From a virus, in the IMG/VR virus record IMGVR_UViG_3300032431_000003, positions 1 through 64,000 of that record: a stretch of DNA of 64,000 nt; one strand, 5' to 3'. The position numbers were made by a program, and so were the translations under genes. This document shows positions 13,544-62,123 of the stretch, in pieces. Every line of letters begins with the position of its first letter. Position 1 is the first letter of the stretch. Under the pieces are notes generated by a model that was not told the origin of the DNA, searched no databases, and saw only the letters and a program-made list of their open reading frames with translations.

Positions 13544-14077
13544 ATGACTGAGAACATTGATGTGTCGAAGGAAGACAATGAACCCATAGCATACGAAGTG
13601 GCAATGAAGAGACTCTCAAAAGCCAGAGGAAAGGCTGCTTGTTATTACTCAGTCACAGAGGTTCTTTGGAGTAGAGAACTCGAAGAAAAGGCTACTCAAC
13701 CCGTATTCCTTGAATCACTACGCCGGAAGATCGAGGTAATCTCCCCAAGGACTCTGAACAAGGGACTGCCTATGGGTTACATGATGCAGTGGCACGAGTC
13801 GTGGACAAGATTGAGGGAGGAATTGTACAACCCTTACTCTTACGAGTATTCCTTCAATGAATTCTTGGCTATTCGTGGAGACGGACATGTTCTGGAAGCT
13901 CTCGCTATTCCACTCGAAATACCCAACTCTCCTAGTTCTGCTCGGCAAGATACGGAGGGAGGCAAGCCAACGATTTACCACGAAGATCACTGGCAGACAC
14001 TGCGGCATCTTGAAGAAGGAGGCTGGGATATTTCCTTGGTGGAATCGTCGAACTTCTTTTTCGGCTCGACAAGGTAA
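13544..14077 (+). CDS. Hypothetical protein, paralog of 14114..14800 and 21560..22225
   Basis: Shared IEVISP..LN.GLP.GY.MQWHES motif; duplicated upstream 40-mer. Confidence 0.8.
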   Translation: MTENIDVSKEDNEPIAYEVAMKRLSKARGKAACYYSVTEVLWSRELEEKATQPVFLESLRRKIEVISPRTLNKGLPMGYMMQWHESWTRLREELYNPYSYEYSFNEFLAIRGDGHVLEALAIPLEIPNSPSSARQDTEGGKPTIYHEDHWQTLRHLEEGGWDISLVESSNFFFGSTR

Positions 14078-14113: not shown

Positions 14114-14800
14114 ATGTTTGCAAACATTAATGAGTGGAAAGAAGAGTTGAAGGAAAACAGCAAGCGCATCGCCTACGAAGTGGCAATGGAAAGACCCTCA
14201 AAGGACACCGGAAAGGCTGGCTGCTCTTACTCAACTACAGAGGTTCTTTGGAGTAGAGAACTCGAAGAGAAGGCTGTTCAAAGGATATTCATTAAATCGC
14301 TGGGCAAGGAGATCGAGGTAATTTCTCCCAAGGTTCTCAATGAGGGATTGCCCCTGGGCTACAAGATGCAGTGGCATGAGTCGTACAGGAAGTTGAGGAA
14401 GGAGGTTTACAATCCATATTTGCGTAACTATTCTTTTGATGAATTCTTGGTCATTATCGAAGACGGCAAATTACTGGAAGATACAATGGATATCTGGCTG
14501 GAAATACCAAACAACCCCAATGATTACTATTCGGATGAAGATGGTAACAGCCCAGCAGTCTGCCACGAAGAGTACTGGGAAATCCTCTGGGGCATTGATG
14601 ACTCTTGGGACAGTTGGCAAGAGGCTGTCCGAGAGTTCTTCCATTCAAAGGTAGATGAGGCAATGAAGGCGAGGCTGTCCTCAAGGGGAGAGTTAGACCG
14701 ACCTGAAGCTCTTGAAGTGGAGATTGAGAAGCTGGCAAGGCTGATTTATACAGAAGCCCAGTCTAGATCGTCTTCCACCAAATCCCCCCGACTTGAGTAA
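14114..14800 (+). CDS. Hypothetical protein, tandem paralog of 13544..14077
   Basis: DNA and protein duplication. Confidence 0.8.
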   Translation: MFANINEWKEELKENSKRIAYEVAMERPSKDTGKAGCSYSTTEVLWSRELEEKAVQRIFIKSLGKEIEVISPKVLNEGLPLGYKMQWHESYRKLRKEVYNPYLRNYSFDEFLVIIEDGKLLEDTMDIWLEIPNNPNDYYSDEDGNSPAVCHEEYWEILWGIDDSWDSWQEAVREFFHSKVDEAMKARLSSRGELDRPEALEVEIEKLARLIYTEAQSRSSSTKSPRLE

Positions 14801-21559: not shown

Positions 21560-22225
21560 ATGACAGTAGTACAAGTAGTACGACATGAAGGCAGCCACTG
21601 GACAAAGACTTTTACAATAGTATCAATGGAAGGGGCTGAAGATGTTATCCGCACTGACAGAGATGGGACATACAGGGTTAAGTGGACTGAACAATTAGAG
21701 CTAGACAACACCATCCAGATCGAGCTTCCCGGAATCCCTGAACCCATCTCTGTGATCGCACCAAAGATTTTAAACGCTCGATTCCCGTCCAGAATGAGAA
21801 TGCAGTTTCACCCCTCTTGGCAAAAGCTCCGAGACAACTTCTACGACCGAACCAAGCCCGATTACACTAATCACGAACTTTACCAGATTAGTGGGTACAA
21901 CTCACTTATTTGGGAGGCGACCGGAATTCTCCTATATATGCCTAGCGGTGGTACGCCGGGAATGTGGGCGGGTGACTACAAGGAGATCGTTGTAGTCCCT
22001 GAACACGAAGAGTTCTGGGAAGAAGGCGGCGGAAGGTACTATGTTTGGGATAGATGGGGCGATCTTCTGCAAGACCTTATCTCAGGAGAGCTCAGAGACT
22101 TGATTGACGAAGAGAAACTCCCTAGGAGTTATGACGGCAAGCCCCCGGACATCGAGGCTACGTTTCAACTTTTGGCAGAGAGAGTTAAGGACAAGGTAGC
22201 CATGTTGGACGAGTGGGAAGACTAG
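21560..22225 (+). CDS. Hypothetical protein, distant paralog of 13544/14114
   Basis: ISVIAPKILN..MRMQFHPSWQKLRDNFY. Confidence 0.75.
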   Translation: MTVVQVVRHEGSHWTKTFTIVSMEGAEDVIRTDRDGTYRVKWTEQLELDNTIQIELPGIPEPISVIAPKILNARFPSRMRMQFHPSWQKLRDNFYDRTKPDYTNHELYQISGYNSLIWEATGILLYMPSGGTPGMWAGDYKEIVVVPEHEEFWEEGGGRYYVWDRWGDLLQDLISGELRDLIDEEKLPRSYDGKPPDIEATFQLLAERVKDKVAMLDEWED

Positions 22226-29707: not shown

Positions 29708-30075
29708 TAACCGTAGAATCCATAAATATTCAAATAGGTCTCGGCGTTAGGGTTGGTTGTATTCCAGTTTCCAGCGCAAAGGAACATAAGCTGTATTGCG
29801 TAGATACCCTTGAAGTCAAGGATAGATACACCGCTTGTCCCCGGAGCCAGTGTTGCCAAAGCAGCACCTTCAGCCCTGACAAGCAAGCTTCCCGTCAAGG
29901 AACCATTCCACCACTCCCCCTGGGGATGGTACTGAACCTTGAGAGTCGTTGAAGCCAAAGCCACGCTGCCCACATTCCTGATTTCTAGGCTAAGGAGCCG
30001 ACCGCCAACTCCCAACTCAAATACCTCCGGGTAAGGAGTCGCCTTAACTAAAAGGTTTTCTTTTGTATATACCAT
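29707..30075 (-). CDS. Hypothetical virion-module protein
   Basis: GAGGA RBS before MVYTKEN; start shares CATG with portal. Confidence 0.65.
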   Translation of the reverse strand: MVYTKENLLVKATPYPEVFELGVGGRLLSLEIRNVGSVALASTTLKVQYHPQGEWWNGSLTGSLLVRAEGAALATLAPGTSGVSILDFKGIYAIQLMFLCAGNWNTTNPNAETYLNIYGFYG

Positions 30076-31534
30076 GCCAAATTTTCCTCGCAAGACTACT
30101 CCTTACTATAACTCAACCACCAACGCAGTATCACCCCCAATCGAGGGCAGTACAGCTTCTAAGTTGTCGTTCCTGACCAGTGAAGTGATCCAAGAGTTTC
30201 AGCGGAAAGGAAAGCACTCCATCTCTGAGCTACTAAAAACAAGGGAGTTGGATGAAGGAGTTGCCGCTTCCATTGCTTTGATGCAGTTAAGGGTAATGGC
30301 TAGGCTAGGGGATTACACTCATCCTATTCCTGAGATAAAGAAGTGGGTCAGGGGTAACTTCACTGACATGGAGGGGACTCTAGCCGAAACAGTTCATCAC
30401 CTAGCCTTGGCTCCTTGGATTGGTAGCACCGACGCCGAAATAAACCCAGTGGCAACAGTAAGGCAAGGAAGACCTGAATGGCGGCTACAAGGCTTGCAGC
30501 CAATCAGTCCCGACAAAGTAAAATATGCGGGTTCGAGAAGGCTGGGGCTAACTCACGTCATTGACATGAGCCATCCGAATCCGTCAAACAGATGTAATTG
30601 GATACCAGTCAGCAAAGTGCTCCACGTTGACCTCGGTAGCTTTGACGGTTCGCCCTATGGCTACGCTTTGGCAAGGAATATAATGCCCTACGTGAAGGCA
30701 AAGCAAGTATTGATGACTGAGTGGATTGTTGCTGGCAGGAATCAATCGTCTGGCTTGCTCATTGGTAAAGCCGATTCTAACCAATCCGTGAGTCTCCTTG
30801 ATCGGGCAGGGCAACCTCTCAAAAACCCTGATGGAACTCCACGTATCGCCTCTGCCGTAGAGCAACTCACTAAGCAGTTGGAGCAATTGGATAGCACCAA
30901 CTTCCTTGTTACCGATCCACAAAATAACGTCATGTGGCAGCCAATGTCTGTAGATTCTGGATTCTTCCAGCAAGCTATTCAGTATGTTGATGGAGCTATT
31001 CTGCTGGGATTGGGAATACCCAAGTTAACTTTCAATGAAGGCAGTGGGCAATTTGGAAACACCTCGGTAGCGATGGTTCAGAAGACTATGCTTGATACCC
31101 GACTGGGGATTATTGCCGACAAGATTGAAGATCAGATCATTGAGCGAGTAATTAGACCCTTGCTTGTCTTTAACTTTGGGTTGACAGCCGAAGATGGCTG
31201 GGGACACTTTGAATCCGACGTATCCAGTGACCCAATCATGGCTCAGTCTCAGCTTCAGATGCTCATGCAAGCTGTAGCCATGCAAGTCATTCCGGCAACC
31301 GATCCTGCTGTCATGGATTCTATTCGTCAACTCCTGAAACTCCCAGCAGTCACCGAAGAAGATGCGTTGGGCAATATTCGCAGGGCTGCGGATATCCAAG
31401 CTCTTCAACAGACAACAGTAATGAAGGCACAGATGGAAGTCCAAAACAAATCTCAGCTAGAGATGATGGAGAAACAATCTCAGATGCAGCAAGAGCAACA
31501 AGCCAAGGAACAACAGCAACCCCAGCAGCAATAA
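30074..31534 (+). CDS. Portal protein (Mu gp29/DUF935-like)
   Basis: SPYGYALARNIMPYVKAK..W, FQQAIQYVDGAILLGL, QIIERVIRPLLVFNFG, IRQLLKLP. Confidence 0.8.
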   Translation: MPNFPRKTTPYYNSTTNAVSPPIEGSTASKLSFLTSEVIQEFQRKGKHSISELLKTRELDEGVAASIALMQLRVMARLGDYTHPIPEIKKWVRGNFTDMEGTLAETVHHLALAPWIGSTDAEINPVATVRQGRPEWRLQGLQPISPDKVKYAGSRRLGLTHVIDMSHPNPSNRCNWIPVSKVLHVDLGSFDGSPYGYALARNIMPYVKAKQVLMTEWIVAGRNQSSGLLIGKADSNQSVSLLDRAGQPLKNPDGTPRIASAVEQLTKQLEQLDSTNFLVTDPQNNVMWQPMSVDSGFFQQAIQYVDGAILLGLGIPKLTFNEGSGQFGNTSVAMVQKTMLDTRLGIIADKIEDQIIERVIRPLLVFNFGLTAEDGWGHFESDVSSDPIMAQSQLQMLMQAVAMQVIPATDPAVMDSIRQLLKLPAVTEEDALGNIRRAADIQALQQTTVMKAQMEVQNKSQLEMMEKQSQMQQEQQAKEQQQPQQQ

Positions 31535-31628: not shown

Positions 31629-33203
31629 ATGAACCAAGATCACCTCCTATCTCCGTTTTTAACCAACTTAGACAAGCCTGTATTCTGCTTGAAAAATCTC
31701 CCTGAAGTTGTCAAGGGAGCCCTTTTCTCTCGTTATAGCCGTAGCGAAAAGGGGCTTCGAGAAATATTGCTCGATGAATTTATCAACGCTCCCGAAGCGT
31801 ATTTCCAAGAACTCTCTGGCGACGCTGAAATCCTCGTAAACAAAGAGCAAGCCGAAGCTTTCTATGACCGAGTACTCTTAGGTTACGGAGATGACTCCAT
31901 CGCTGAGCTTGGCGGCGCACACATTGCTTGCGAAGGCATTAGCAACATTGCGGCAAAAGCCCTAGAGGACTGTCGAATTGGTATTTCACCACTAGAAAAA
32001 TCAACTAGATATGTCCGGTTCGACCAGAAAAAGGATGGCAAGTATCTGTACTACCGAGAACTGCTGATAATGGCATCGATCCACTCCGATCTCTACGAAG
32101 AAACAATGGACTTGCTATTCAAGACTTACTCAGACTTAATCGCTCCTCTTTCTGAGTGGCTGAAGACTAAGTACCCCAAGAATGAGTCAACGAAAGAGAA
32201 ACCTTACCTCAATAGCATCAAAGCAAAAGCCCTTGATATTCTGCGAGGATTACTGCCAATGGCTACATTGACAAACGTGGGACTCTACGGCAATGGACGG
32301 TCTCTTGAGTACCTGCTGGTGAAATTTGCAGCTTCACGCCATATCGAAGTTCGCCAGCTAGGGGTGGATATGCAAGAAGAACTAAAACAAGTTATTCCAT
32401 CTTTTATCAAAGGAGCCACTACGGAGCGGGGGCAAAGGCAGTCTCAGCGAATCATAGATAGTCTAATCGCAACAAGGGAAACAGCCGAGGACTTGGTTGG
32501 TGGGCTGGCTCGTTGTGAAAGGACAGATACGGTTTGCTTGACTGATTACGAACCCTACGCTGTCACCCAAGTTATCACAGCTATCCTTTACCCACATAGT
32601 GACCTTTGCCTAAGTCGAATTGCCGAAGCCGTCATAGGTATGGCTCAGTGGGACAAAGAAGCTGTTATCAATGAATACGTGGGTGATCGACACTCTCGGT
32701 TTGACAAAGTAGGCAGGGCTTTCGAGGAGGTCTTCTATACCTTTGACATCCTTGCCGACATCGGAGCCTACCGAGACTTACAGAGACATCGCTTAATGAG
32801 CCAAGAGCACCAAGATTACACGGTTAAACATGGGTACGATGTTCCCGATGAACTTGTCGAAGCTACACTCGACGAACCGTATCGGAGGGCTATGAACGCC
32901 GCCTCCTTTGCCTTCGAGATCGTAGAATCAAGCTTGCCCATTGCCGCTCAATACATGGTTCCTTTTGGTTGCAAGATTCGATGGAAGATAAAGCTAAACT
33001 TGAGAGAGGCTTATCATTTCATCGAATTACGCAGTCAGAGACAAGGGCATTCTTCGTACAGGGAAATTGCCCAGCAAATGTACCTTGCAATCAACGATGT
33101 TCACCCAGAGTTGGCAGCGCACATGATCATCGACATGAAAGATTACGACCTAGAACGGCTTGCTGCCGAACAGAAAACCGAAGCAAAAAGAGGAGAAGCA
33201 TGA
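31629..33203 (+). CDS. thyX: FAD-dependent thymidylate synthase, long two-domain form
   Basis: GYGDDSIAEL, EKSTRYV, RDLQRHR, FIELRS..GH.SYR motifs. Confidence 0.92.
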   Translation: MNQDHLLSPFLTNLDKPVFCLKNLPEVVKGALFSRYSRSEKGLREILLDEFINAPEAYFQELSGDAEILVNKEQAEAFYDRVLLGYGDDSIAELGGAHIACEGISNIAAKALEDCRIGISPLEKSTRYVRFDQKKDGKYLYYRELLIMASIHSDLYEETMDLLFKTYSDLIAPLSEWLKTKYPKNESTKEKPYLNSIKAKALDILRGLLPMATLTNVGLYGNGRSLEYLLVKFAASRHIEVRQLGVDMQEELKQVIPSFIKGATTERGQRQSQRIIDSLIATRETAEDLVGGLARCERTDTVCLTDYEPYAVTQVITAILYPHSDLCLSRIAEAVIGMAQWDKEAVINEYVGDRHSRFDKVGRAFEEVFYTFDILADIGAYRDLQRHRLMSQEHQDYTVKHGYDVPDELVEATLDEPYRRAMNAASFAFEIVESSLPIAAQYMVPFGCKIRWKIKLNLREAYHFIELRSQRQGHSSYREIAQQMYLAINDVHPELAAHMIIDMKDYDLERLAAEQKTEAKRGEA

Positions 33204-51074: not shown

Positions 51075-52220
51075 CTAAGCAGCCCTCCGTGCAAATAACA
51101 ATTTAGGATTAGGGATTACTGGCAACATTGTCGCAACGCCTTGAGTGGCATCACGAGGAGGGAACTTAGTAACTTCTCTAGTGACCACAAAGGGACCAGG
51201 GGCTCCTTCGTTTTCTAGGGTTGGACCCATAGCTTGTTCGCCCATGCCTTGAGTCAAGAAGACGTAACGATCTGGGTTGAAGAAGCGCATTTTCCCACCA
51301 CCATTAGGCAGGTTGTACATTTCATCACAGATAATAATTGGGGGTAAGCCCATGTCTTCAAAGAGACGATCAAGCATGAGGTTGGAAACCACTCCCACAT
51401 TGGAGACAACGACAGACGCTGCGGAGTTGGAGATCGAAGAGAATGAACGCTTCGTGGACTCTTGATTTCGCAAGTGAAGCCGCAACTTGTGGGACATGAG
51501 AATTGCCGTAGGCATGTAGCCGTTAGTGTCTCGGAAGACCTCTACGTCATTCTCTAAGTTTTGCAATCCATCGGCAGTGACGTATTGATTCCACGCTTGA
51601 GGAGTCGCAGTCAGATCGGGTGGAAAGTGAGCAAATTTGCCATTAGGGGCATAGCCATAGGTGGCATCGGCATCACGGTAGTCCAAGGGCAATCGAACAC
51701 TGGTTCGAGTATCTTCGTAATTGACGAAGCCAAACTGGACTGCTTGAGCCGCAATTAGATAATTAAGGTCAGTCAAGGCTCGTGCCATGTCAGCAATAGT
51801 GCCAAACAAGTAATCAGCCAAGGTGGAGTTAGCACCGGGGATGACTGCTCCATTGGGCAATACTTGTGACTGAACAGTTAGCCCTTTAGCCGAAGCCTTC
51901 TCAAGGGCTTCACGCATTTGCCATTGACGTTCTTCGGGGTAGTCAAAGGAAAGCCCAGCCTTGAATAGATCACCAGTAATCTTGTTGAATTTACCAACTT
52001 GAGTGGTTGGTAGTTCCGCACCATAGGCAACTAAGGAAGCCACTGGGCTTACCTTGTCCACCACGTAGGCGAGGAAGTCCCGCGTATCATACATTCGTGG
52101 AGGTAAGAAAGCATCAAGAGCCCGTTTTCGCTGATTAAGATAGTGGAGAGTGTCGTCCACCATAATGTTCGCTTCGGCAGCTTGTTGCTGTTCACTTAAC
52201 CAGCTTGCAATTTGTCCCAT
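51075..52220 (-). CDS. Major capsid protein (HK97 fold, lambda gpE-like)
   Basis: ASLVAYGAELP, GYMPTAILMS, GLPPIIICD, ATMLPVIPNP; GAGGA RBS; position. Confidence 0.88.
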   Translation of the reverse strand: MGQIASWLSEQQQAAEANIMVDDTLHYLNQRKRALDAFLPPRMYDTRDFLAYVVDKVSPVASLVAYGAELPTTQVGKFNKITGDLFKAGLSFDYPEERQWQMREALEKASAKGLTVQSQVLPNGAVIPGANSTLADYLFGTIADMARALTDLNYLIAAQAVQFGFVNYEDTRTSVRLPLDYRDADATYGYAPNGKFAHFPPDLTATPQAWNQYVTADGLQNLENDVEVFRDTNGYMPTAILMSHKLRLHLRNQESTKRSFSSISNSAASVVVSNVGVVSNLMLDRLFEDMGLPPIIICDEMYNLPNGGGKMRFFNPDRYVFLTQGMGEQAMGPTLENEGAPGPFVVTREVTKFPPRDATQGVATMLPVIPNPKLLFARRAA

Positions 52221-54194: not shown

Positions 54195-54578
54195 TTATCT
54201 GTATTTCCGCTTCTTAGACCTCCGAATCTTTCTACCAAGAGCCTTGGCTCCTCGGTAGGCTCCATAGCCAAGAGCAACGGTTCCCGCAGCTTTCAAGGCA
54301 TTACTCGTACCACTCAAAACGCCCCCACCAACGGCTCCAGCAGCACCGCCTGCAACAGGGTTAAACCCCATCCCTTTTGCTGCGGCAGCACTCGCTGTTC
54401 CACCGATTATTCCACCCCTAAGCAGTCCCAGTCCTCCACCAGCGAGAGCCCCGTACTTGACTGCCTTACCTAGTCGGATACCTTTTCGGCTTTTCTTGCC
54501 ACCCAAGGGAGAGGCAAATTCAGCCCGAAGAGGCTCGTCGTAATACATTGAGAAAGCTGCGTCCAGCATTGTGTACAT
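54195..54578 (-). CDS. Leader-cargo basic protein (MYTMLDAAFSMYYDEPLRAEF) with glycine zippers
   Basis: AGGAG RBS; conserved leader. Confidence 0.85.
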   Translation of the reverse strand: MYTMLDAAFSMYYDEPLRAEFASPLGGKKSRKGIRLGKAVKYGALAGGGLGLLRGGIIGGTASAAAAKGMGFNPVAGGAAGAVGGGVLSGTSNALKAAGTVALGYGAYRGAKALGRKIRRSKKRKYR

Positions 54579-54590
54579 TGTTTACTCCTA

Positions 54591-54968
54591 TTAACCTTTA
54601 GTGCCTCTACGTCGTTTCAAGCCAATCTTTCGACGAGCTCGATGTCCAGTAGCTTTGATAGAGCGAACAGCCCTGTAGGCTCCGTAGCCAGCAAGTCCTC
54701 CTGCTAGACCAGTTGCGGCTCCCTTTAGACTCTCCGAAGCTATTGGTCTGACCATTCCCTTCGCTACATCCGTTGGGCTCCGTCCAGCCTTTCTGCTGAT
54801 GTATTGACGAGAAGCTTCACCGAGCCCAAGTCCAACGGCTCCCCCAAGGACACTATTGCGAATACCCTGCTTTAGAGCCCTTTTATTTTTCTTTGACATA
54901 CCAAACTCAGCTTGGAGAGGCTCGTCGTAATACATTGAGAAAGCTGCGTCTAACATCGAATATTCCAT
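54591..54968 (-). CDS. Leader-cargo basic protein (MEYSMLDAAFSMYYDEPLQAEF) with glycine zippers
   Basis: Start reassigned from leader homology. Confidence 0.85.
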   Translation of the reverse strand: MEYSMLDAAFSMYYDEPLQAEFGMSKKNKRALKQGIRNSVLGGAVGLGLGEASRQYISRKAGRSPTDVAKGMVRPIASESLKGAATGLAGGLAGYGAYRAVRSIKATGHRARRKIGLKRRRGTKG

Positions 54969-54972
54969 GTCT

Positions 54973-55374
54973 TTATATCTTGGGGAATTTGAGTGCATTC
55001 TGGGCGGCAGTAACGTTGGCAGAGGCTCCAGCCTTGGCTCCAGCAAAGACTGGCTTGACTAGTCTAGTTCCCCTAGCCCCAGAAGCATAGGCTGTCTTGC
55101 CAGCACCGTAGCCACCCTTGCCTGCCCCGTGAAGCCCAGCCCCAATGACTGATGCCTTTATTGGGTTCTTGGCAACAAAGGCTCCGACTTTTTTGAGTTG
55201 CGTATTGGCAGCCCCAGCTAGCCGACCAGCCCCTCGCCTAGCCAAGAGAGCGGCGCGTTTCGCCTTCCTCCCTGCCCGACGAAGAAATCCTCGCTTACCA
55301 GGGGGAGCAGCGCCTTCGTTGAAATTGGCGGAAGCGTAGAGTTCGTGGGCTGAGTCGATTAGTGTGTATGCCAT
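54973..55374 (-). CDS. Leader-cargo basic protein (MAYTLIDSAHELYASANF)
   Basis: AAGGA RBS; start reassigned from leader homology. Confidence 0.85.
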   Translation of the reverse strand: MAYTLIDSAHELYASANFNEGAAPPGKRGFLRRAGRKAKRAALLARRGAGRLAGAANTQLKKVGAFVAKNPIKASVIGAGLHGAGKGGYGAGKTAYASGARGTRLVKPVFAGAKAGASANVTAAQNALKFPKI

Positions 55375-55387
55375 GTTGATCCTTGAT

Positions 55388-55747
55388 TTATCGGGGCATT
55401 CTTTGACTATTTCTGAAGTTCTTGGCAGATTGAACGGCTTGAGCCCTATTGGTGGACTTTGGACTGTTGGCAACTCGCTTAGCTACAGAACCCGCATAAA
55501 GTCCACCAGCCCCAAGAGCTAAAGCCCCGCCAGCCCCAAGAGCCACCTTACCCTTGTTTCGCATGGCAACTCCGCCAGCCCTTCGAGCTAAAGACCCTGC
55601 GCCTCTACCTGCTCGTCCAGCCATCTGTCCAGCCCGTCCTGCAAAAACTTTAGCTTTTCGCCCTGCCTTACGAAGCATTCCTGCCTTAGAGAATTCTGCT
55701 TCGGGGTAGTACATTTCGTAAGCGGCATCTAATAATGTGTAAGCCAT
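55388..55747 (-). CDS. Leader-cargo basic protein (MAYTLLDAAYEMYYPEAEF) with glycine zipper
   Basis: GAGGA RBS; leader identical to 56060 and 56427. Confidence 0.85.
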   Translation of the reverse strand: MAYTLLDAAYEMYYPEAEFSKAGMLRKAGRKAKVFAGRAGQMAGRAGRGAGSLARRAGGVAMRNKGKVALGAGGALALGAGGLYAGSVAKRVANSPKSTNRAQAVQSAKNFRNSQRMPR

Positions 55748-55768
55748 CTGCGGTTTCCTCTGTTTCGT

Positions 55769-56044
55769 TTATTTTTTGCGGAAGGGGTTCATTCGTCGAA
55801 GCCCACCGCCAATGTCCTTTTTAATCCGTTGACCAACTCCGTAGGCAAAGGCTTCATCGGGAGCACGGGGTTGTCGTTTTCGAGGCTTTGTTTCTCGGTG
55901 CATCGCTCTTTCCCCAGCGTTGAGGTATCGATACTTTGCTGCCTTGAGCCTCGTCTTAACTTTCTTGAATGTCCGCTTACCCATTGCAAACTCAGCTTTC
56001 TGGGGGCGAAATTCAAGTGCAGATTCTAGTAGTGTGTATGCCAC
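55769..56044 (-). CDS. Leader-cargo basic protein (MAYTLLESALEFRPQKAEF)
   Basis: GTG start, GGAGG RBS. Confidence 0.8.
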   Translation of the reverse strand: MAYTLLESALEFRPQKAEFAMGKRTFKKVKTRLKAAKYRYLNAGERAMHRETKPRKRQPRAPDEAFAYGVGQRIKKDIGGGLRRMNPFRKK

Positions 56045-56059
56045 TTGTTTCCTCCCTGA

Positions 56060-56377
56060 CTATCTTCTTCGTGGAAGAGCTCTTCGTGCAACCTTGTCAG
56101 TGCTCATCTCTCTCATCAGCCCTCTCATTTCGGGGGTTTGGCGAAGCATTGCTCCTCCACCCTTATTCCACCGCTTAGCCGCCGCTTCCGTTCTGCCTGT
56201 CTTGTACCCTAGCCTGAAGTTTTTCTTATATTTCTTAGCCTTCATTCCACCTAGCCGGGCGTAACTCTTGGCTTTCCGACCAACTCCGCTAAGCGCAGCC
56301 CTACCTCTGTCTAGCAATCCGAATTCTGCTTCGGGGTAATACATTTCGTAAGCTGCATCTAATAATGTGTAAGCCAT
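56060..56377 (-). CDS. Leader-cargo basic protein (MAYTLLDAAYEMYYPEAEF), paralog of 56427
   Basis: TAAGGAG RBS; 26 of 86 post-leader residues are R/K. Confidence 0.85.
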   Translation of the reverse strand: MAYTLLDAAYEMYYPEAEFGLLDRGRAALSGVGRKAKSYARLGGMKAKKYKKNFRLGYKTGRTEAAAKRWNKGGGAMLRQTPEMRGLMREMSTDKVARRALPRRR

Positions 56378-56426
56378 CTGTGGTCTCCTTAGTCGTGTTT
56401 ATTTTTGCGGGTTAGTTTCTCTCTGG

Positions 56427-56744
56427 CTATCTTCTTCGTGGAAGGGCTTTTCGCCCAACCTTGTCGCTGCTCATCCCTCTCACAGCCGCCCTAACGTCGG
56501 GGTCTATCCGAAGTATTGGTCCCCCAGTCCGATTCCACCGCTTAGCCGCCGCTTGCGTTGCACCTGTCTTATACCCTTTCTTAAAGTCTTTCTTAGCTTT
56601 CCTAGCCTTCATCCCGGCTAGACGGGCGTAACTCTTGGCTTTTCGACCAACTCCGCTAAGCGCAGCCCTACCTCTGTCTAGCAATCCGAATTCCGCTTCG
56701 GGGTAATACATTTCGTAAGCTGCATCTAATAATGTGTAAGCCAT
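56427..56744 (-). CDS. Leader-cargo basic protein (MAYTLLDAAYEMYYPEAEF), paralog of 56060
   Basis: AAGGAG RBS; tandem duplicate. Confidence 0.85.
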   Translation of the reverse strand: MAYTLLDAAYEMYYPEAEFGLLDRGRAALSGVGRKAKSYARLAGMKARKAKKDFKKGYKTGATQAAAKRWNRTGGPILRIDPDVRAAVRGMSSDKVGRKALPRRR

Positions 56745-56770: not shown

Positions 56771-57829
56771 TTAACGTTTGCCAGGTCGAAATGTCGAAAG
56801 AGAAGACGAACCCAGGGTTCTTGCCGTTACATCGACAGTTTTCTTGCCAGCGGGAACGCTAGATTCCTTCTTCCTCAGTGCATCTCGATACCTTGCACCT
56901 TGAATTAAATTGTGTCCTGTCTTGTACAGTCCCAACGCAAGTACCGTAGAGCGGATGGGGTTTTGAGCCATAGTCTTGAGTTCTCGCCCTATCACCCGAC
57001 CAGCGGCTCCGGCTCCCCTTCTCAGTCCTCGACCAGCTCTTCTTCCCCCAATCTTCGCTTTCCTCAAGACTCTAGATTCCGATCTCTTGAAGTCAATTAC
57101 TGAAGATCGGGATCGAAGTCTTCGTTGATTAAATCGAACGACTCCTCCTCTACTAGCTCGAAAACCAAGCCATCTTTTCCGAGTGGCTATATCTCTAGCA
57201 GCCTTCTCTTTAGCCCAGTTCTTGCCCTTCTCGATTGCACTACCTGCCACCTGGGAAGCCTTACTAGTCAACTCTCTTCTTTTTGCTATGTCCTCTTCGG
57301 CAATTCCCTTGAGTGCTTGCTTGACATTCTTTAGAACAGGCTTCGCTTTTCTTCTCACCAGTCGAACACCAGCTTCAACTCTCTTGCTTTTCTTTTGAGT
57401 CCAAATCCCGACATTCTTCTTGACTCCTTTGACGGTCTGAACAGCCTGCCCTGTTAGCTCTTTTCTCTTCGCAATGTCCTTGGTAGCTCTGTTGTTGCCC
57501 CAGTCTTTTGCCTTTTGGATTTGCTGATTGGTTTGCTTCTGGACTTGTTGATTGGCTCCCACAGGGATACCCTTGCCGAATTCCTCTCCAGCAGTATTAA
57601 ACCCCTGCTTTACCCTTTTCCCCGATTCATTCTTGATGGCGGAAATAGTTGCCCCAATTTTCTTGCGGTTCAAGTAAAGCCCAGCGGCTCCAGCGGCAGC
57701 AAGGCGAGTCCCCATCCCTTTCTTTGTCCTGCCTATAGCAAGCCTGCCTATCCGCTTTAGTCCAGCCCTAACTTTGCCGGACTTAAATTCAATTCTGTCG
57801 GGGGTAATGTCACCCATTACTACTAGCAT
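56771..57829 (-). CDS. Large basic protein with ..PDRIEF leader and internal DIAKR repeats
   Basis: Starts right after protease stop; very K/R-rich. Confidence 0.75.
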   Translation of the reverse strand: MLVVMGDITPDRIEFKSGKVRAGLKRIGRLAIGRTKKGMGTRLAAAGAAGLYLNRKKIGATISAIKNESGKRVKQGFNTAGEEFGKGIPVGANQQVQKQTNQQIQKAKDWGNNRATKDIAKRKELTGQAVQTVKGVKKNVGIWTQKKSKRVEAGVRLVRRKAKPVLKNVKQALKGIAEEDIAKRRELTSKASQVAGSAIEKGKNWAKEKAARDIATRKRWLGFRASRGGVVRFNQRRLRSRSSVIDFKRSESRVLRKAKIGGRRAGRGLRRGAGAAGRVIGRELKTMAQNPIRSTVLALGLYKTGHNLIQGARYRDALRKKESSVPAGKKTVDVTARTLGSSSLSTFRPGKR

Positions 57830-58762
57830 TTATCTAGCCCTCCGTCCCGAAGCCCTCTTCAGTATTTTGGCAAAATTAGCCAATTTACCTGCATTGGCGG
57901 ACATCTTTGCTTGAGACAAGTCTTGCTGCCTTGTGACGTAGCTAGGGTCTTGCATCCCACTCATTCCTGGGTAGCCATCGGGGGCATCTTCGCCACCATC
58001 TAATCCCAAGAGTTCAGCGAGACGATCCGAGAGACCACCAATGGCATCTTCGACAAGCATCGCTGGGTCTTCGCCCATCAAGGTTGATTCGTCTGCCTGA
58101 GAAATACAGGTAACAATCTCCCAGAATTTCTCAGTGATTTCTTCGTACTGTTCCTTGAGTTCGTCGATTTGGGTTTGCTCCTCTTCTGCATCATCCCAAG
58201 TCAGCGAAAAACGAGCATCACTGTTGTGCTGCCTGAAAATACTCAGTCCAACAATGGCTGGCTGAGGAGTTGCCGAGATTTCCTTGATAGTATTCGTAGC
58301 TACATCGATACCGGGAGAAAGAGTCTTGATTCTTCCCGACATTACCTGAGCTACAATATCTTCGCCCTTGGCTACTAACTGCCCAAAAGCTCCCAACTTA
58401 CCGACCAGCTTTCTTAGTCGGGGATTAGGAAGGTCATTTTCAGTAATGATGCGGATTTCCAACTCGCCTTCTAAGTCACCAATGTTGGCACTCTGAGTCT
58501 TGTCGTGGTCTTTTTGCCAAGGGATTCTGCCGCCAGCCCGAAGGAAGGCATTGGTTTTCTCAACTAAATCACGAAGTCTTTCTTGGGAGAAGGTGTGGGG
58601 TCGCTTCTGGGAGTCGTGGTGATTGCCTTCAATCATCAGCAAGGCTTCCTTGATTAGAACACCGTCTTCTTGGTCTTCTTCGGCAAAGCTGGCGGGAGTA
58701 AGCCCCAGTCCAAATGGGGAAAGAAATTCTAGTCGTTTTGACCGAGGTTTTGGTTTGGGCAT
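57830..58762 (-). CDS. Prohead maturation protease (Mu gpI-like / HK97-fold serine protease) with acidic C-terminal extension
   Basis: IPWQKDH, IG, IKTLSPGID, EISATPQPAIVGL. Confidence 0.8.
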   Translation of the reverse strand: MPKPKPRSKRLEFLSPFGLGLTPASFAEEDQEDGVLIKEALLMIEGNHHDSQKRPHTFSQERLRDLVEKTNAFLRAGGRIPWQKDHDKTQSANIGDLEGELEIRIITENDLPNPRLRKLVGKLGAFGQLVAKGEDIVAQVMSGRIKTLSPGIDVATNTIKEISATPQPAIVGLSIFRQHNSDARFSLTWDDAEEEQTQIDELKEQYEEITEKFWEIVTCISQADESTLMGEDPAMLVEDAIGGLSDRLAELLGLDGGEDAPDGYPGMSGMQDPSYVTRQQDLSQAKMSANAGKLANFAKILKRASGRRAR

Positions 58763-58874: not shown

Positions 58875-59105
58875 CTACTTCATCCGAGGTTTGGAAAGGT
58901 GCTTGAGAGTGCCTAGCCGAGGAATAACTCGACGATAGGAATTGGGTATCTTGGGCAAAGTATTCTTCGCTCTCGTCGCTGCCTTGCCTAGTTTCCTGAG
59001 ACGACCTCGAATATGCCCTGTCTTTTGGAGCTTTGTCATCCCCGTTGGCATCTGAAGCTCTGCGTATTTCGTTGCAAACTCAATGAGACTATTGTAGTGA
59101 TTCAT
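58875..59105 (-). CDS. Small basic protein with MNHYNSLIEF leader
   Basis: Composition and IEF motif. Confidence 0.6.
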   Translation of the reverse strand: MNHYNSLIEFATKYAELQMPTGMTKLQKTGHIRGRLRKLGKAATRAKNTLPKIPNSYRRVIPRLGTLKHLSKPRMK

Positions 59106-59164
59106 GGCTAAGCCCTTGCAGAGCGTATATTATGATAGTTGATATAAAAAACCCTTGATTTTCC

Positions 59165-59632
59165 ATGACACAGAAAACTGCAACTCGACGAGGTAAATTT
59201 GGACGACCCAACGGGATTAGTCATAACAGCTTTCTTGCCCTACTTCGACTTGAATCGAGGATTAGTCAGAAAGAAGTTGCCATAGCAACCCACGTCTCGC
59301 AGCCCCTGGTTAGCAATATCGAGAAAGGGAAAACCCCAGCAGACATATTATACTTATACAGACTAGCTGAACTTTATGCCGTTCCATCCTTCGGTGAATT
59401 TTGTGAGAAGTACCTCCAAGACCTCATTAGCCACCTTTCGCCGCAGTCTATCAAGGCAGCATCGGCGAAATATCAGTCAATCTCTCCGGCGCAGGGGAAT
59501 CATGAGCAGCAAAAACCCAGCCCGACCCCATCTGAGACCGAGGGCAGTCAGATTGACGAACGGCTCAATTCTGATAATCAAGCCCAGACCCCTTTAATAA
59601 AGAATGAAGACCTTCACCCCGCTATTTTCTAA
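59165..59632 (+). CDS. XRE-family HTH transcriptional regulator
   Basis: LRLESRISQKEVAIATHVSQPLVSNIEKGKTP..LAELY. Confidence 0.88.
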   Translation: MTQKTATRRGKFGRPNGISHNSFLALLRLESRISQKEVAIATHVSQPLVSNIEKGKTPADILYLYRLAELYAVPSFGEFCEKYLQDLISHLSPQSIKAASAKYQSISPAQGNHEQQKPSPTPSETEGSQIDERLNSDNQAQTPLIKNEDLHPAIF

Positions 59633-60590
59633 GCTACCAATTCCTTGCGCCCTGATTAACGAAGACAACGTAGTCACTATGGCTTCCGAAGCAGCTATAG
59701 AAATAGGATATTGTATTGGCAAAAAGATTGAGTCAGACTGGCTCGACAACTTTAACAACTTAAAAGAGACTAAAGGGAGGCTAGAGGTCTTTTGCAGCCA
59801 AAACTGGTGGCTCGTTCAATTAGAAAGAGTCGAAAAGGGGGTGGTGCTTATTGCCACGAACATCTCAAAGGAGAAGTCGTTAATCGAGGTACTAGAGTCG
59901 AGGAATCAAAAGCAGACCGATCTGGGTCGTCAAATATTCCATCACGATGCCATTACATTCCTTAACGGTATTGACTTTTGGGTAGAAGAGGCATCTGACT
60001 CATCCCCCGACAATAATGCAATAAAAAGAATAGGCAGCATATCCCTAGAGCTTCGGAATTTGATGGAAGGAAGTTCATATCTTTATGGGGCAGGAAAAAC
60101 TCCTCTGAGAGCATTGGTTCTCAAGGAGTTGGTTGAGCATGTACTGGAAATACTGGAACCTCGCATCAAGGAGAAGGAAGCAATTGTAACAGTGGAAGGT
60201 AATGGAACTATTGTTTGGGGTGATACGAATCGACTAGGGCGAGTACTGATGAATCTGATCTCTAATGCACTTAATTATCAACCTCTCAGGAAATCTCATA
60301 TCCCAGTCGTAAAAATATCAATAAAGCCAGAGTCAGAGCAGGGGCTTGTTACCTTAGAGGTGGAGGACAACGGAATTGGTGTGTCAGCAGAGTATCAAGA
60401 GCGGATATTCTCTCCGCTATCAAGGCTGCACGGGAGTCAGGATTACCCAGGTTCAGGGCTGGGGCTGGCTATTGTGGAACGGATTATATTGGAACACAAT
60501 GGAAGTGTAGGAGTATCCAGTGAAGGAGACGGATCAACATTTTGGATTAAAATACCAGGGCATCAGGCACGTTCTGCTAGTAGAGGATGA
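59604..60590 (+). CDS. Soluble sensor histidine kinase (PAS-like + HisKA + HATPase, Cph1-type kinase core)
   Basis: H box FHHDA, N box NLISNALNY, DNGIG, IFSP..RLH..DYPGSGLGL, GSTFWI. Confidence 0.9.
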   Translation: MKTFTPLFSKLPIPCALINEDNVVTMASEAAIEIGYCIGKKIESDWLDNFNNLKETKGRLEVFCSQNWWLVQLERVEKGVVLIATNISKEKSLIEVLESRNQKQTDLGRQIFHHDAITFLNGIDFWVEEASDSSPDNNAIKRIGSISLELRNLMEGSSYLYGAGKTPLRALVLKELVEHVLEILEPRIKEKEAIVTVEGNGTIVWGDTNRLGRVLMNLISNALNYQPLRKSHIPVVKISIKPESEQGLVTLEVEDNGIGVSAEYQERIFSPLSRLHGSQDYPGSGLGLAIVERIILEHNGSVGVSSEGDGSTFWIKIPGHQARSASRG

Positions 60591-60987
60591 CTTGAGTGCA
60601 ACTGAGATGGTTCGAGTTATTTTTGCAAGAATGCAGAATAGTTCAACGATCAACACCGTTCAACACTATGCACTCTGGGAAATAAACAATGGGAAAAGTG
60701 CCGTGCAGACTCTCAGGGAGATGCCTTTCGATCTAATACTTCTAGACATCTCGCTACCCATTATGTCTGGGTTTGAGGTCTTAACTCTTGTTAGGGCAAT
60801 GCACATTTATACTCCAATATTTATGTTTTCCTCGTCAAGCAATACCTTGGATGTTCACAAGGCATACGATCTGGGAGCCAATGGATTCATATTAAAATCC
60901 GAAGGAAGAAGGCAAATAGAACTTCGCATAAGGGCTGTTTGTGACTGTTATTTTAATTACTTACTACTGCCATGCCCTCTATATTGA
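60520..60987 (+). CDS. Single-domain response regulator (Rcp1-like)
   Basis: VLLVEDD, DLILLDISLP..GFEVL, FSSS..DVHKAYDLGANGFILK; GTG start with AGGAG RBS. Confidence 0.88.
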   Translation: MKETDQHFGLKYQGIRHVLLVEDDLSATEMVRVIFARMQNSSTINTVQHYALWEINNGKSAVQTLREMPFDLILLDISLPIMSGFEVLTLVRAMHIYTPIFMFSSSSNTLDVHKAYDLGANGFILKSEGRRQIELRIRAVCDCYFNYLLLPCPLY

Positions 60988-62072
60988 TTATCGATGACAC
61001 CCCCGAAAACTGTGAAGCTCTAGCGATGAATCTCGATGCCCTGGGTATGTCCAGTGAATCAAGGATAGTCGCTTACTCAATAGACAAAGGGCTGGAAGCC
61101 ATTCAAGAGTTCCCCAGTATTCGGACTATTTTGCTTGATCTTCGATTGCCGGGGATAAAGATGGGCGAAGTAGTCGGCAAGGTGCAGGAAGTGTTGGAAT
61201 TGTGTGGAAATACTAAGGCAGTCATCATTCCCATCTCAGTAGGATCAACGAACCCTTCCGTTGTCAATACCACGGAAATCGCTAATTCTATAACAGGCCC
61301 AAAAGCGTTGTCGAAAGTGCTGCAAATAGCCGACAACCATGTAGAGCAGAACATATCAAGGGAAGATAGGGAGGACATTCGAGGTGGGGCAACAAGGCTA
61401 GAGGGAAAGGTTGAGAAGATAGAAGCAATGCTCTTGGCTTTCAAGGAAGAAAACAGGGAGTTAAAACTTGAATTAAAGGAAGTCAAGTCCGTCTTGCTTG
61501 CGCTCAAGATGGTAGTAGATGATCCCCTACTTCTATGGAAGCTAATCCTTCGACACCCCGCAATTCAAGTAGCCGTAATAGCAATTGTTATCAGCAATAT
61601 GGATTCAATGTTCGAGGCGTGGCAGAAAGCCAAGAAACTTTGGGACTCAGGGGCAGAAAACACTAGCCATCTGTCTCGCAATGTTGTCGCCCAGTCCTTC
61701 AAAGAGCCTACCGTCGTCGAGTCCAATGACCAAAAACCCAACCTCGCAATTTACCGCAGCAACTCCACTTTCTTGCAGGGCTCCATCAACAATGGTGATT
61801 GGCGCAATCCGACTTCCCCGCTCTCCAGTTGTAATCTTGGCTGGATCGACAAGGATAAAGCGAGTGTCGGACAGAAATATCCGAACCTCGCCACTACCCT
61901 GAGCACACGATGCCATGTATTCATTGGGTACTTGGGAGCCAACAAGAGAAAGCAGCCTACCTCGATAACCTACGAGTCTTGCTTCCGAGCTTGGGGCGAC
62001 CCTCCGCATCTGATCTACGATACCGACGGCTCCTGTCCAGTTTTGGGAGCAAACGGCGACCTGAAGGCGTGA
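60972..62072 (+). CDS. Receiver domain + coiled coil + hydrophobic helix protein (3' end uncertain)
   Basis: ILIIDD, ILLDLRLPG; heptad RLEGKVEKIEAML..LKEVK; AIQVAVIAIVI. Confidence 0.75.
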   Translation: MPSILIIDDTPENCEALAMNLDALGMSSESRIVAYSIDKGLEAIQEFPSIRTILLDLRLPGIKMGEVVGKVQEVLELCGNTKAVIIPISVGSTNPSVVNTTEIANSITGPKALSKVLQIADNHVEQNISREDREDIRGGATRLEGKVEKIEAMLLAFKEENRELKLELKEVKSVLLALKMVVDDPLLLWKLILRHPAIQVAVIAIVISNMDSMFEAWQKAKKLWDSGAENTSHLSRNVVAQSFKEPTVVESNDQKPNLAIYRSNSTFLQGSINNGDWRNPTSPLSSCNLGWIDKDKASVGQKYPNLATTLSTRCHVFIGYLGANKRKQPTSITYESCFRAWGDPPHLIYDTDGSCPVLGANGDLKA

Positions 62073-62123
62073 ATTTAGATTCGACGTGTTGATCGATGCG
62101 AGTAAAACTAGCTCTGGAATCAT
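61647..62123 (-). CDS. Probable exported hypothetical protein, antisense to the 3' part of 60972..62072
   Basis: Hydrophobic N-terminus; AVCSQNW..A..IVDQM..YR.RL resembles cyanobacterial hypothetical proteins (recalled). Confidence 0.5.
   Translation of the reverse strand: MIPELVLLASINTSNLNSRLQVAVCSQNWTGAVGIVDQMRRVAPSSEARLVGYRGRLLSLVGSQVPNEYMASCAQGSGEVRIFLSDTRFILVDPAKITTGERGSRIAPITIVDGALQESGVAAVNCEVGFLVIGLDDGRLFEGLGDNIARQMASVFCP

Follow-up and report, generated by a model that had tools for sequence, protein, structure and literature searches.

A Two-Component Signaling Cassette with Two Receivers in the Head Module of a Tailed-Phage Contig

Organization of the Locus

The window analyzed in this work (positions 1–64000 of IMGVR_UViG_3300032431_000003, a 77,925-bp linear IMG/VR virus record with a CheckV completeness of ~71%) carries a two-component signaling cassette among its phage head genes. 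Four overlapping open reading frames (ORFs) on the plus strand, with overlaps of 29, 71 and 16 nt, encode, in this order, an XRE-family regulator, a soluble sensor histidine kinase of 328 aa, a stand-alone receiver of 155 aa and ORF4, a protein of 366 aa in which a receiver is followed by a coiled coil and a hydrophobic helix (Table 1). The cassette is placed between a MuF-like gene and a prohead protease gene, and is opposite in orientation to the minus-strand head genes. The left junction and the operon recur in two independent metagenome contigs, one with 88% identity to the window (L004) and one near-identical to it (L005), and an assembly chimera is therefore unlikely.

The composition of the cassette sets it apart from the rest of the phage. 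Its codon usage is atypical, with a relative synonymous codon usage correlation of 0.36 versus 0.71 ± 0.11 for random gene triplets of the phage, and the kinase and receiver genes have a guanine-plus-cytosine (GC) content of 41–44%, versus 48.4 ± 2.3% for the phage. In the comparison with L004, the synonymous divergence (dS) across positions 58875–60590 was found to be uneven, at 0.03 for the 76-aa head-module gene, 0.14 for the XRE gene and 0.43 for the kinase gene, which suggests recombination breakpoints within the cassette. The sole inverted repeat that was detected falls within the XRE coding sequence, and the divergent intergenic region, presumed to serve as promoter/operator, contains none.

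The first protein of the cassette matches the Pfam families HTH_3 (1.6e-8; 34.9 bits versus a cut-off of 23) and HTH_31 (1.1e-7), as well as repressor/regulator families of PHROGs, and its ratio of nonsynonymous to synonymous divergence (dN/dS) against L004 is 0.23. No XRE homologue is present in the related cassette of a second phage contig, IMGVR_UViG_3300007517_000168 (L003), and the XRE gene is an accessory specific to the lineage of the window. In L005 (positions 622–1053), the XRE tail is frameshifted after the helix-turn-helix (HTH) domain and the ORF stops before the kinase start, so that the tail may be dispensable, unless the frameshift is a sequencing error.

Table 1. Features of the cassette, its flanks and other phage genes mentioned in the text.
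Feature	Position	Strand	Description
Divergent intergenic region	59106–59164		59 nt between the 76-aa head-module gene (−) and the XRE gene (+); presumed promoter/operator
XRE-family HTH regulator	59165–59632	+	155 aa; HTH residues 22–74 (59228–59386); low-complexity C-terminal tail
Soluble sensor histidine kinase	59604–60590	+	328 aa; HATPase_c 2.9e-25
Kinase, mini-PAS-like domain	59625–59861	+	Residues 8–86; AlphaFold2, Foldseek/VIA
Kinase, DHp helices	59865–60083	+	Residues 88–160; predicted phospho-His H114 at 59943–59945
Kinase, CA/ATP-binding domain	60108–60560	+	Residues 169–319
CheY-like receiver	60520–60987	+	155 aa, no output domain; Response_reg 4.6e-19 (residues 18–137); predicted acceptor D76 at 60745–60747
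ORF4, entire frame	60972–62072	+	366 aa
ORF4, conserved part	60972–61670	+	Divergent receiver (residues 1–~125), coiled-coil helices (~130–181), hydrophobic helix (~185–215; W..(H/N)P..I motif)
ORF4, predicted acceptor D56	61137–61139	+	
ORF4, C-terminal extension	61671–62072	+	~135 aa; in the window's lineage only, absent from the 187–200-aa orthologues
Prohead protease, Mu GpI type (left flank)	57830–58762	−	34% identity (E 6.5e-34) to the PA-SR01 'Mu-like prophage I protein'; weak phrog_976 match
MuF-like minor head protein (right flank)	61957–67368	−	1,803 aa; 3' part in window to 64000; Phage_Mu_F 7e-7, above cut-off
Major head/capsid protein	51075–52220		phrog_29, 5.5e-23
Mu-type portal	30074–31534	+	
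ThyX	31629–33203	+	524 aa

The Kinase and Its Receivers

In the 11 sequences of the kinase family, residues N217 and N221 (N box), D255xGxG259 (G1 box), F269 (F box) and G283xGxG287 (G2 box) are invariant, and the pair H114-D115 (H box), which aligns with the SHDLR H-box of HisKA kinases and falls in a predicted helix (residues 88–131), is invariant or near-invariant. The AlphaFold2 model, obtained with a 39-sequence alignment, reached a mean predicted local distance difference test (pLDDT) value of 87.5 and consists of a five-stranded, two-helix mini-PAS-like domain (pLDDT ~95), two DHp helices (residues 88–131 and 137–160) and the CA domain (residues 169–319). When the model was compared over its whole length with Foldseek and VIA-align, PAS/LOV-DHp-CA kinases were retrieved, namely VicK (4i5s), ThkA (3a0r) and YF1-type chimeras. 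The Pfam domains PAS, GAF and PHY gave no match in any of the 11 family members, and 86 residues precede the DHp. The kinase is cytoplasmic, to judge from its hydropathy, which shows no hydrophobic segment, and its dN/dS value against L004 is 0.14. Autophosphorylation, as in class I histidine kinases, is predicted, with H114 as the probable site.

The closest solved relative of the kinase core is the kinase domain of the bacteriophytochrome RpBphP2 (8f71; E 1.9e-25, 35% identity, structure Z 23.9), and other bacteriophytochromes (8sgk and 8avv) rank third and fourth among the PDB matches. To judge from these matches, the phytochrome type of the core is a statement about the kinase subfamily and not about light sensing.

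The stand-alone receiver starts with GTG, with an AGGAG ahead of it, and retains D23/D24, D76, S104, F123 and K126 intact. Its top PDB relatives are the OmpR-family receivers AdeR, MtrA and PmrA (1e-12 to 1e-10), and its top NCBIfam matches are the CtrA and MtrA receivers, whereas RcpA (1k68) stands at approximately rank 45 with 5.8e-7, and Rcp1 and RcpB are absent from the top 60. The layout does match that of the Rcp type, with a single receiver domain, no output domain and a gene that overlaps the kinase gene. The N-terminus of the receiver has a dN/dS value of 0.23 against L004, and the orthologous receiver of L003 is 47% identical and ends in the same C-terminal LLPCPLY. This tail was considered as a possible Rcp-like extension and the idea was rejected: its conservation is explained by dual coding with the conserved MPSILIIDD start of ORF4 in the 16-nt overlap. 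The overlap has the same design in the window phage and in L003 and reflects translational coupling.

ORF4 belongs to a family of six sequences from four lineages (the window, P0130, P0131, the L003 orthologue, P0281 and P0283), in which residues D8, D9, D56 and S89 are invariant. The typical member has 187–200 aa; in it, a divergent receiver leads into a short coiled coil, which is followed by a conserved W..(N/H)P..hydrophobic helix located ~15–25 residues from the C-terminus. The family profile matches PDB receivers at 2e-4, and for the Atlas model of the L003 orthologue all ten of the ten structural neighbors are receiver proteins, aligned over 127–162 residues. The short hydrophobic helix possibly anchors ORF4 in the membrane. 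No enzymatic or killing domain was recognized in the protein with Pfam or NCBIfam.

The lineage of the window differs from the typical members by a longer coiled coil and by the C-terminal extension, which has a pLDDT value of ~25 and a GC content at third codon positions (GC3) of 0.64, versus 0.48 ± 0.04 for the phage genes. The frame of the extension stays open in the 86–90% identical relatives P0130 and P0131. The extension and the 3' end of the MuF gene, which is convergent with ORF4, share 116 nt, corresponding to the 38 terminal codons in each gene. The extension is only tentatively regarded as coding, and a minus-strand ORF of 158 aa (61647–62123) also spans this region.

A preliminary description of this DNA had recognized a complete, intact two-component cassette inside the head module, made up of four overlapping plus-strand genes between minus-strand phage genes. 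The ORFs, the overlaps and both flanks were verified, and the Pfam domains, the invariant residues and the head genes on either side bear out its completeness. The same description reported intact H, N, G1, F and G2 boxes and two aspartate phospho-acceptor motifs, and all of these are present, with D76 in the free receiver and D56 in ORF4. It also stated that the GAF-PHY region is missing and that a short PAS-like region is left, which agrees with the Pfam result and with the PAS-like fold predicted for residues 8–86. The proposed resemblance to the Cph1/Rcp1 pair holds for the kinase core, with RpBphP2 as its nearest solved relative, and fails for the regulator, for which the label 'Rcp1-like' is not supported, its nearest solved relatives being OmpR-type receivers.

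Distribution and Maintenance

A profile scan of IMG/VR showed that the trio of kinase, receiver and ORF4 recurs in L003, a contig of 38 kb with an estimated completeness of 41%. There, overlapping genes encode a kinase of 316 aa, a receiver of 135 aa and an ORF4-like protein of 200 aa; the kinase is 38% identical to that of the window and the ORF4 N-terminus likewise 38%. The trio of L003 lies between the terminase genes (TerS/TerL) and a gene for a SigF-like group-3 sigma factor. The sigma factor gene (L003 11958–12755, plus strand; NF005644, 7.7e-22) begins 35 nt downstream of the trio and has no counterpart in the 78-kb contig of the window, so that the association with a sigma factor is not general; the receiver-helix protein might conceivably act on this sigma factor. 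Otherwise, the two contigs share only a handful of genes, the clearest of which belong to a family of ~180–230-aa proteins that have no Pfam matches (21560–22225, 13544–14077 and 14114–14800), with up to 56% identity to L003, where two copies stand in tandem.

An exhaustive profile search over 1.84 billion representatives yielded ~9 full-length kinase lineages, all of 299–340 aa, and the remainder matched the catalytic core only. The closest cellular-type kinases are ~30–34% identical over the core. A motif scan of one genome for each of 185,579 species found no member of the kinase family in cells, a result which, being motif-based, is not proof of absence, and returned generic kinases alone, from Thermotogae, Marinomonas and Eubacterium metagenome-assembled genomes.

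Matches to the kinase are scarce among cultured or deposited phages, being limited to 23 of 50,697 records, and many of those 23 are doubtful assemblies. The preliminary view that complete phosphorelays are uncommon in phages is fair for cultured phages. In IMG/VR, two short motifs sufficed to bring up 53 kinase-bearing contigs, of which ~30 also encode a receiver no more than 4 kb away. PHROGs also includes kinase and receiver families of unknown function.

The conservation in L003, the dN/dS values of 0.14–0.23, the unusual codon usage and the lack of the cassette in the Pseudanabaena phage PA-SR01 show that the cassette is an accessory island, mobile among phages and kept by selection, and not a decaying host fragment.

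Two further arrangements came up in these searches. The 348-kb jumbo-phage contig IMGVR_UViG_3300023257_000007 (L025, 3598–6116) encodes a kinase of 349 aa, a receiver of 122 aa, a protein of 232 aa with an N-terminal hydrophobic segment and a receiver of 119 aa, and thus presents another two-receiver viral cassette with a possible membrane partner. A tail-anchored protein of 161 aa beside hybrid kinases in the giant-virus contigs L038 and L042 was also considered as a parallel and was discarded, being unrelated and Cys-rich, with two transmembrane segments.

The Phage and Its Head Module

The 77.9-kb contig carries a tailed-phage gene set, including a probable tape-measure gene whose product has 2,606 aa; neither a sigma factor nor a tyrosine integrase was found in it. 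The only cultured relatives of the capsid protein are those of the Pseudanabaena phages Pam2 and PA-SR01 (30% identity, E ~5e-40). The order of the head module, with a MuF-like gene, a Mu GpI protease, a scaffold, a capsid and a tape measure, is common to PA-SR01, and the MuF-like gene of the window weakly matches the PA-SR01 gene located upstream of the PA-SR01 protease. At the MuF/protease junction, PA-SR01 has two small unrelated genes, and neither a kinase nor a cassette. On the basis of the capsid relatedness and this head synteny, the host is likely to be a filamentous cyanobacterium. Single-sequence scans of IMG/VR with the kinase, protease and capsid proteins returned no matches, and the phage is therefore, by that method, without close IMG/VR relatives.

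Several other features of the contig were recorded. A run of small, very basic genes (54195–56744, minus strand; 58875–59105; 56771–57829) lies between the prohead protease and the scaffold. Their products have in common an acidic/aromatic leader conserved at the N-terminus (MAYTLLDAAYEMYYPEAEF...) and resemble leader-tagged cargo of the capsid that would be cleaved by the protease. The ThyX gene adjoins that of the Mu-type portal on the plus strand, apart from the remaining head module, and its Thy1 domain is confined to the C-terminal part (best stretch 319–494), with a long N-terminal region before it. Past the end of the window, an FtsK/SpoIIIE-like ATPase (PF01580, 2e-12) is encoded on the minus strand (contig 68208–70802, corresponding to L002 6208–8802) and adjoins an M23/endolysin-like protein.

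Relation to Known Systems

Among GenBank phages, the same architecture, with the last gene split in two, was found in the Microcoleus phage My-WqHQDG (OR578706.1, 88856–91946), which infects a filamentous cyanobacterium and in which a comparable cassette also forms an island against the orientation of its neighbors. Four overlapping genes (WOL31350–WOL31353, annotated as hypothetical, response regulator receiver, hypothetical and hypothetical, respectively) encode a PAS-HisKA-HATPase kinase of 545 aa, a stand-alone receiver of 138 aa, a second receiver of 171 aa (Response_reg 5.7e-12) and a coiled-coil protein of 179 aa whose C-terminus carries a clear hydrophobic anchor (hydropathy 1.91). The receiver is 30% identical to that of the window, and the G2 region of the kinase is of the same type. 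The two cassettes differ in that the Microcoleus phage kinase has a recognizable HisKA domain and a longer PAS input, and in that the Microcoleus phage cassette lies in the replication region instead of the head module and has no XRE gene. The kinases align over the ATP-binding domain only (34%). Moreover, the Microcoleus phage has separate genes for its second receiver and its helical membrane protein, whereas the window unites both in one gene, ORF4, which resembles a fusion of these last two functions; the comparison suggests a joint action of the second receiver with the helical, membrane-proximal protein.

The closest wiring described so far is that of the bacterial defense system Detocs (bioRxiv 10.1101/2023.01.24.525353), which consists of a kinase (DtcA), a receiver proposed to act as a buffer (DtcB) and a receiver-effector (DtcC), and some variants of which carry transmembrane effectors and confer defense. 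The three-gene order is the same as in the window, and in both cases a lone receiver is accompanied by a receiver fused to a C-terminal module that does not bind DNA, a likeness of architecture only. DtcA is large and has a TPR sensor, 80% of the effectors are PNP ATP nucleosidases and the systems are found in bacterial genomes, in contrast to the module of the window, which is phage-borne, has a mini-PAS-like sensor and lacks an identifiable killing domain.

With bacteriophytochromes and the Cph1-Rcp1 pair (8F71; RcpA, 1K68), the cassette shares a DHp-CA core and the order of a kinase followed by a stand-alone receiver. The kinase of the window, however, lacks the PAS-GAF-PHY core and the bilin site, with ~86 residues before the DHp, and the cassette adds a second receiver fused to a helical tail. 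The cytoplasmic PAS-DHp-CA kinases of Thermotoga maritima that work with stand-alone receivers, ThkA-TrrA (3A0R) and HK853-RR468 (3DGE), are also similar, and the kinase model aligns to 3a0r over residues 2–320 (Z 18.1) and to HK853 (Z 22.8); these systems are cellular, have a canonical HisKA domain and have no second receiver-helix protein. In the Tax1 system of Synechocystis, the kinase PixL phosphorylates the receivers PixG and PixH, both of which lack DNA-binding domains, and one receiver drives a protein-level output while the other, PixH, antagonizes it (PMC11181946). Here the likeness concerns the wiring only, as PixL is of the CheA type and photoreceptor-fed, and PixG is of the PatA type and acts on the pilus motor.

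Among viruses, the regulatory auxiliary genes on record include orphan kinases and phoR/phoB-like genes (PMC10987575). A literature search for characterized two-component systems of phages returned only the agr genes of phiCDHM1, divergent Rec domains of jumbo phages and auxiliary genes of the phoR/phoB type, and no functional study of a phage-encoded two-component system was found in the literature searched.

Proposed Mechanism and Alternative Explanations

The reading that best accommodates these data, to which we assign a probability of roughly 0.6, is that the cassette is a self-contained, branched two-component circuit owned by the phage. The mini-PAS-like domain would detect a cue inside the infected cell, the host being probably a filamentous cyanobacterium, and the kinase would then autophosphorylate on H114. 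The phosphoryl group would be partitioned between two phage receivers, D76 of the free receiver and D56 of ORF4, all produced from one translationally coupled message. As neither receiver has a DNA-binding domain, the output would be post-translational and would not consist of gene regulation by the receivers. Phosphorylated ORF4 would most likely change its oligomeric state or the partner binding of its helical tail, possibly at the membrane, and the free receiver may compete for phosphate as a sink or buffer, in the manner of PixH (PMC11181946) and as proposed for DtcB (bioRxiv 10.1101/2023.01.24.525353). In the lineage of the window only, the XRE protein probably acts on the 59-nt divergent spacer to control transcription of the cassette, which is an accessory island that entered the MuF/protease junction in reverse orientation. 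The phosphotransfer wiring, the sink role, the membrane association and the signal are inferences, and the purpose may be the timing of a late or membrane event, or the exclusion of other phages.

Several observations weigh against this reading. Pfam HisKA (PF00512) does not match the kinase of the window and matches only two of the 11 family members, marginally (best E 0.018), for which reason the DHp is called divergent. The N-terminal part of ORF4 scores below the Response_reg cut-off (1.9e-3; 18.8 bits versus 30.2), with half of the domain covered, and the receiver lysine after beta-5 is kept in the lineage of the window alone and not in the ORF4 relatives. The AlphaFold2 model of ORF4 has a pLDDT value of 42.5 and is confident for beta1–beta4 only, being poor after residue 88. 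The hydropathy of the ORF4 helix is borderline (1.5–1.8 over 19 residues) and no higher than that of a buried strand of the free receiver. When the helical part of ORF4 is compared with that of the Microcoleus phage protein, no sequence similarity is found, so the argument for a fusion is one of architecture. A consensus scan of the plus strand found no sigma-70-like site in the 59-nt spacer, and the promoter/terminator scan stayed at background level. Finally, the co-occurrence of the trio is established in two lineages only, among those with contig context.

An unlikely, though not negligible, alternative is that the cassette serves defense or superinfection exclusion in the manner of Detocs, with a kinase that detects a competing phage, a free receiver that buffers leaky phosphorylation and a phosphorylated receiver-helix protein that damages the membrane and thereby aborts or excludes the secondary infection. 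Opposite orientation, a regulator of their own and odd codon usage are typical of phage-borne morons and defense genes, and all three are seen in this accessory island. The gene order matches dtcA-dtcB-dtcC, including the C-terminus that does not bind DNA, and effectors of the transmembrane kind are known to defend (bioRxiv 10.1101/2023.01.24.525353). In PADLOC, the receiver weakly matches one candidate only, PDC-M60B (9.5e-6, over the first 60 residues), and from the profile lengths we infer that PDC-M60 corresponds to Detocs. This match is, however, generic (23.5 bits versus 69 bits to Pfam Response_reg), and neither the kinase nor ORF4 has a PADLOC match. The sensor is a mini-PAS and not a TPR domain, no killing domain is recognizable and the hydrophobic helix is marginal. 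In addition, the motif scan did not find the kinase family in cellular genomes, where defense systems normally abound, and the trio of L003 lies between the terminase genes and a SigF-like sigma factor instead of in a defense island.

Somewhat less probable still is a hijack of the host network, in which the phage kinase phosphorylates host regulators, or the receivers drain host kinases, possibly those of light or redox signaling, so as to reprogram the cell or time development. The phytochrome-type subgroup of the kinase core (with 8f71 as the top match), the RLH..(D/E)YPGSGLGL motif that it shares with its closest cellular homologues, the probable cyanobacterial host and the known occurrence of orphan kinases and phoR/phoB-like genes among viral regulatory genes (PMC10987575) are all in keeping with it. 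Two receivers of its own in a conserved, translationally coupled unit nevertheless argue for a self-contained circuit, the kinases of the family are ~30–34% identical to any cellular kinase and come from phage/metagenome contigs only, and the receiver is not Rcp-like and no chromophore-binding domain is present. The link to host light signaling put forward in the preliminary description finds no evidence that would tie the module to light or to host phytochrome signaling, and its suggestion that the system times development is one possible role. That description had also named a recently captured, decaying host fragment absent from relatives as a finding that would overturn it. Such a fragment, or an assembly chimera, of no function to the phage, is very improbable: the catalytic and acceptor residues are all intact under dN/dS values of 0.14–0.23, the trio is present at 38–47% identity in the distinct phage contig L003, the junctions recur in independent assemblies and the motif scan found no cellular source. 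These outweigh the deviation of the kinase and receiver genes from the other phage genes in codon usage and GC content, the non-genic appearance of the ORF4 extension (pLDDT ~25, GC3 0.64) and the frameshifted XRE tail of L005, which would otherwise favor it.

A broader generalization of the self-contained circuit, which we regard as rather doubtful at present, is that phages of filamentous cyanobacteria possess a private signaling class, consisting of a PAS kinase, a receiver that serves as a buffer and another receiver joined to a tail-anchored coiled-coil protein, either fused to it or encoded next to it; in this class, phosphorylation would gate a membrane event. If this were true, the gated event could be, for example, a phospho-controlled lysis timer of the holin/antiholin kind or an exclusion effector resembling that of Detocs, and this type of output is undescribed for phages.

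Significance

Two-component systems are the main sensing device of bacteria, and viral kinases have so far mostly been listed as 'regulatory auxiliary genes' (PMC10987575). The cassette described here is unlike a stolen host gene in that it is self-contained, is conserved between unrelated phage contigs and has no cellular counterpart in the genomes scanned, and also in that its last gene joins a receiver to a helical tail that possibly binds membranes, and not to a DNA-binding domain. The module combines a kinase family restricted to phages, whose DHp is divergent and whose sensor is a mini-PAS, with a new receiver-helix family and a two-receiver layout that is common to the Microcoleus phage. 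If the proposed wiring is true, phages would run a sensory circuit of their own inside the host, and these three proteins would provide a compact system for learning what a virus needs to sense, be it a competing phage or the energy or redox state of the cell, and in what way a receiver, once phosphorylated, can act at a membrane.

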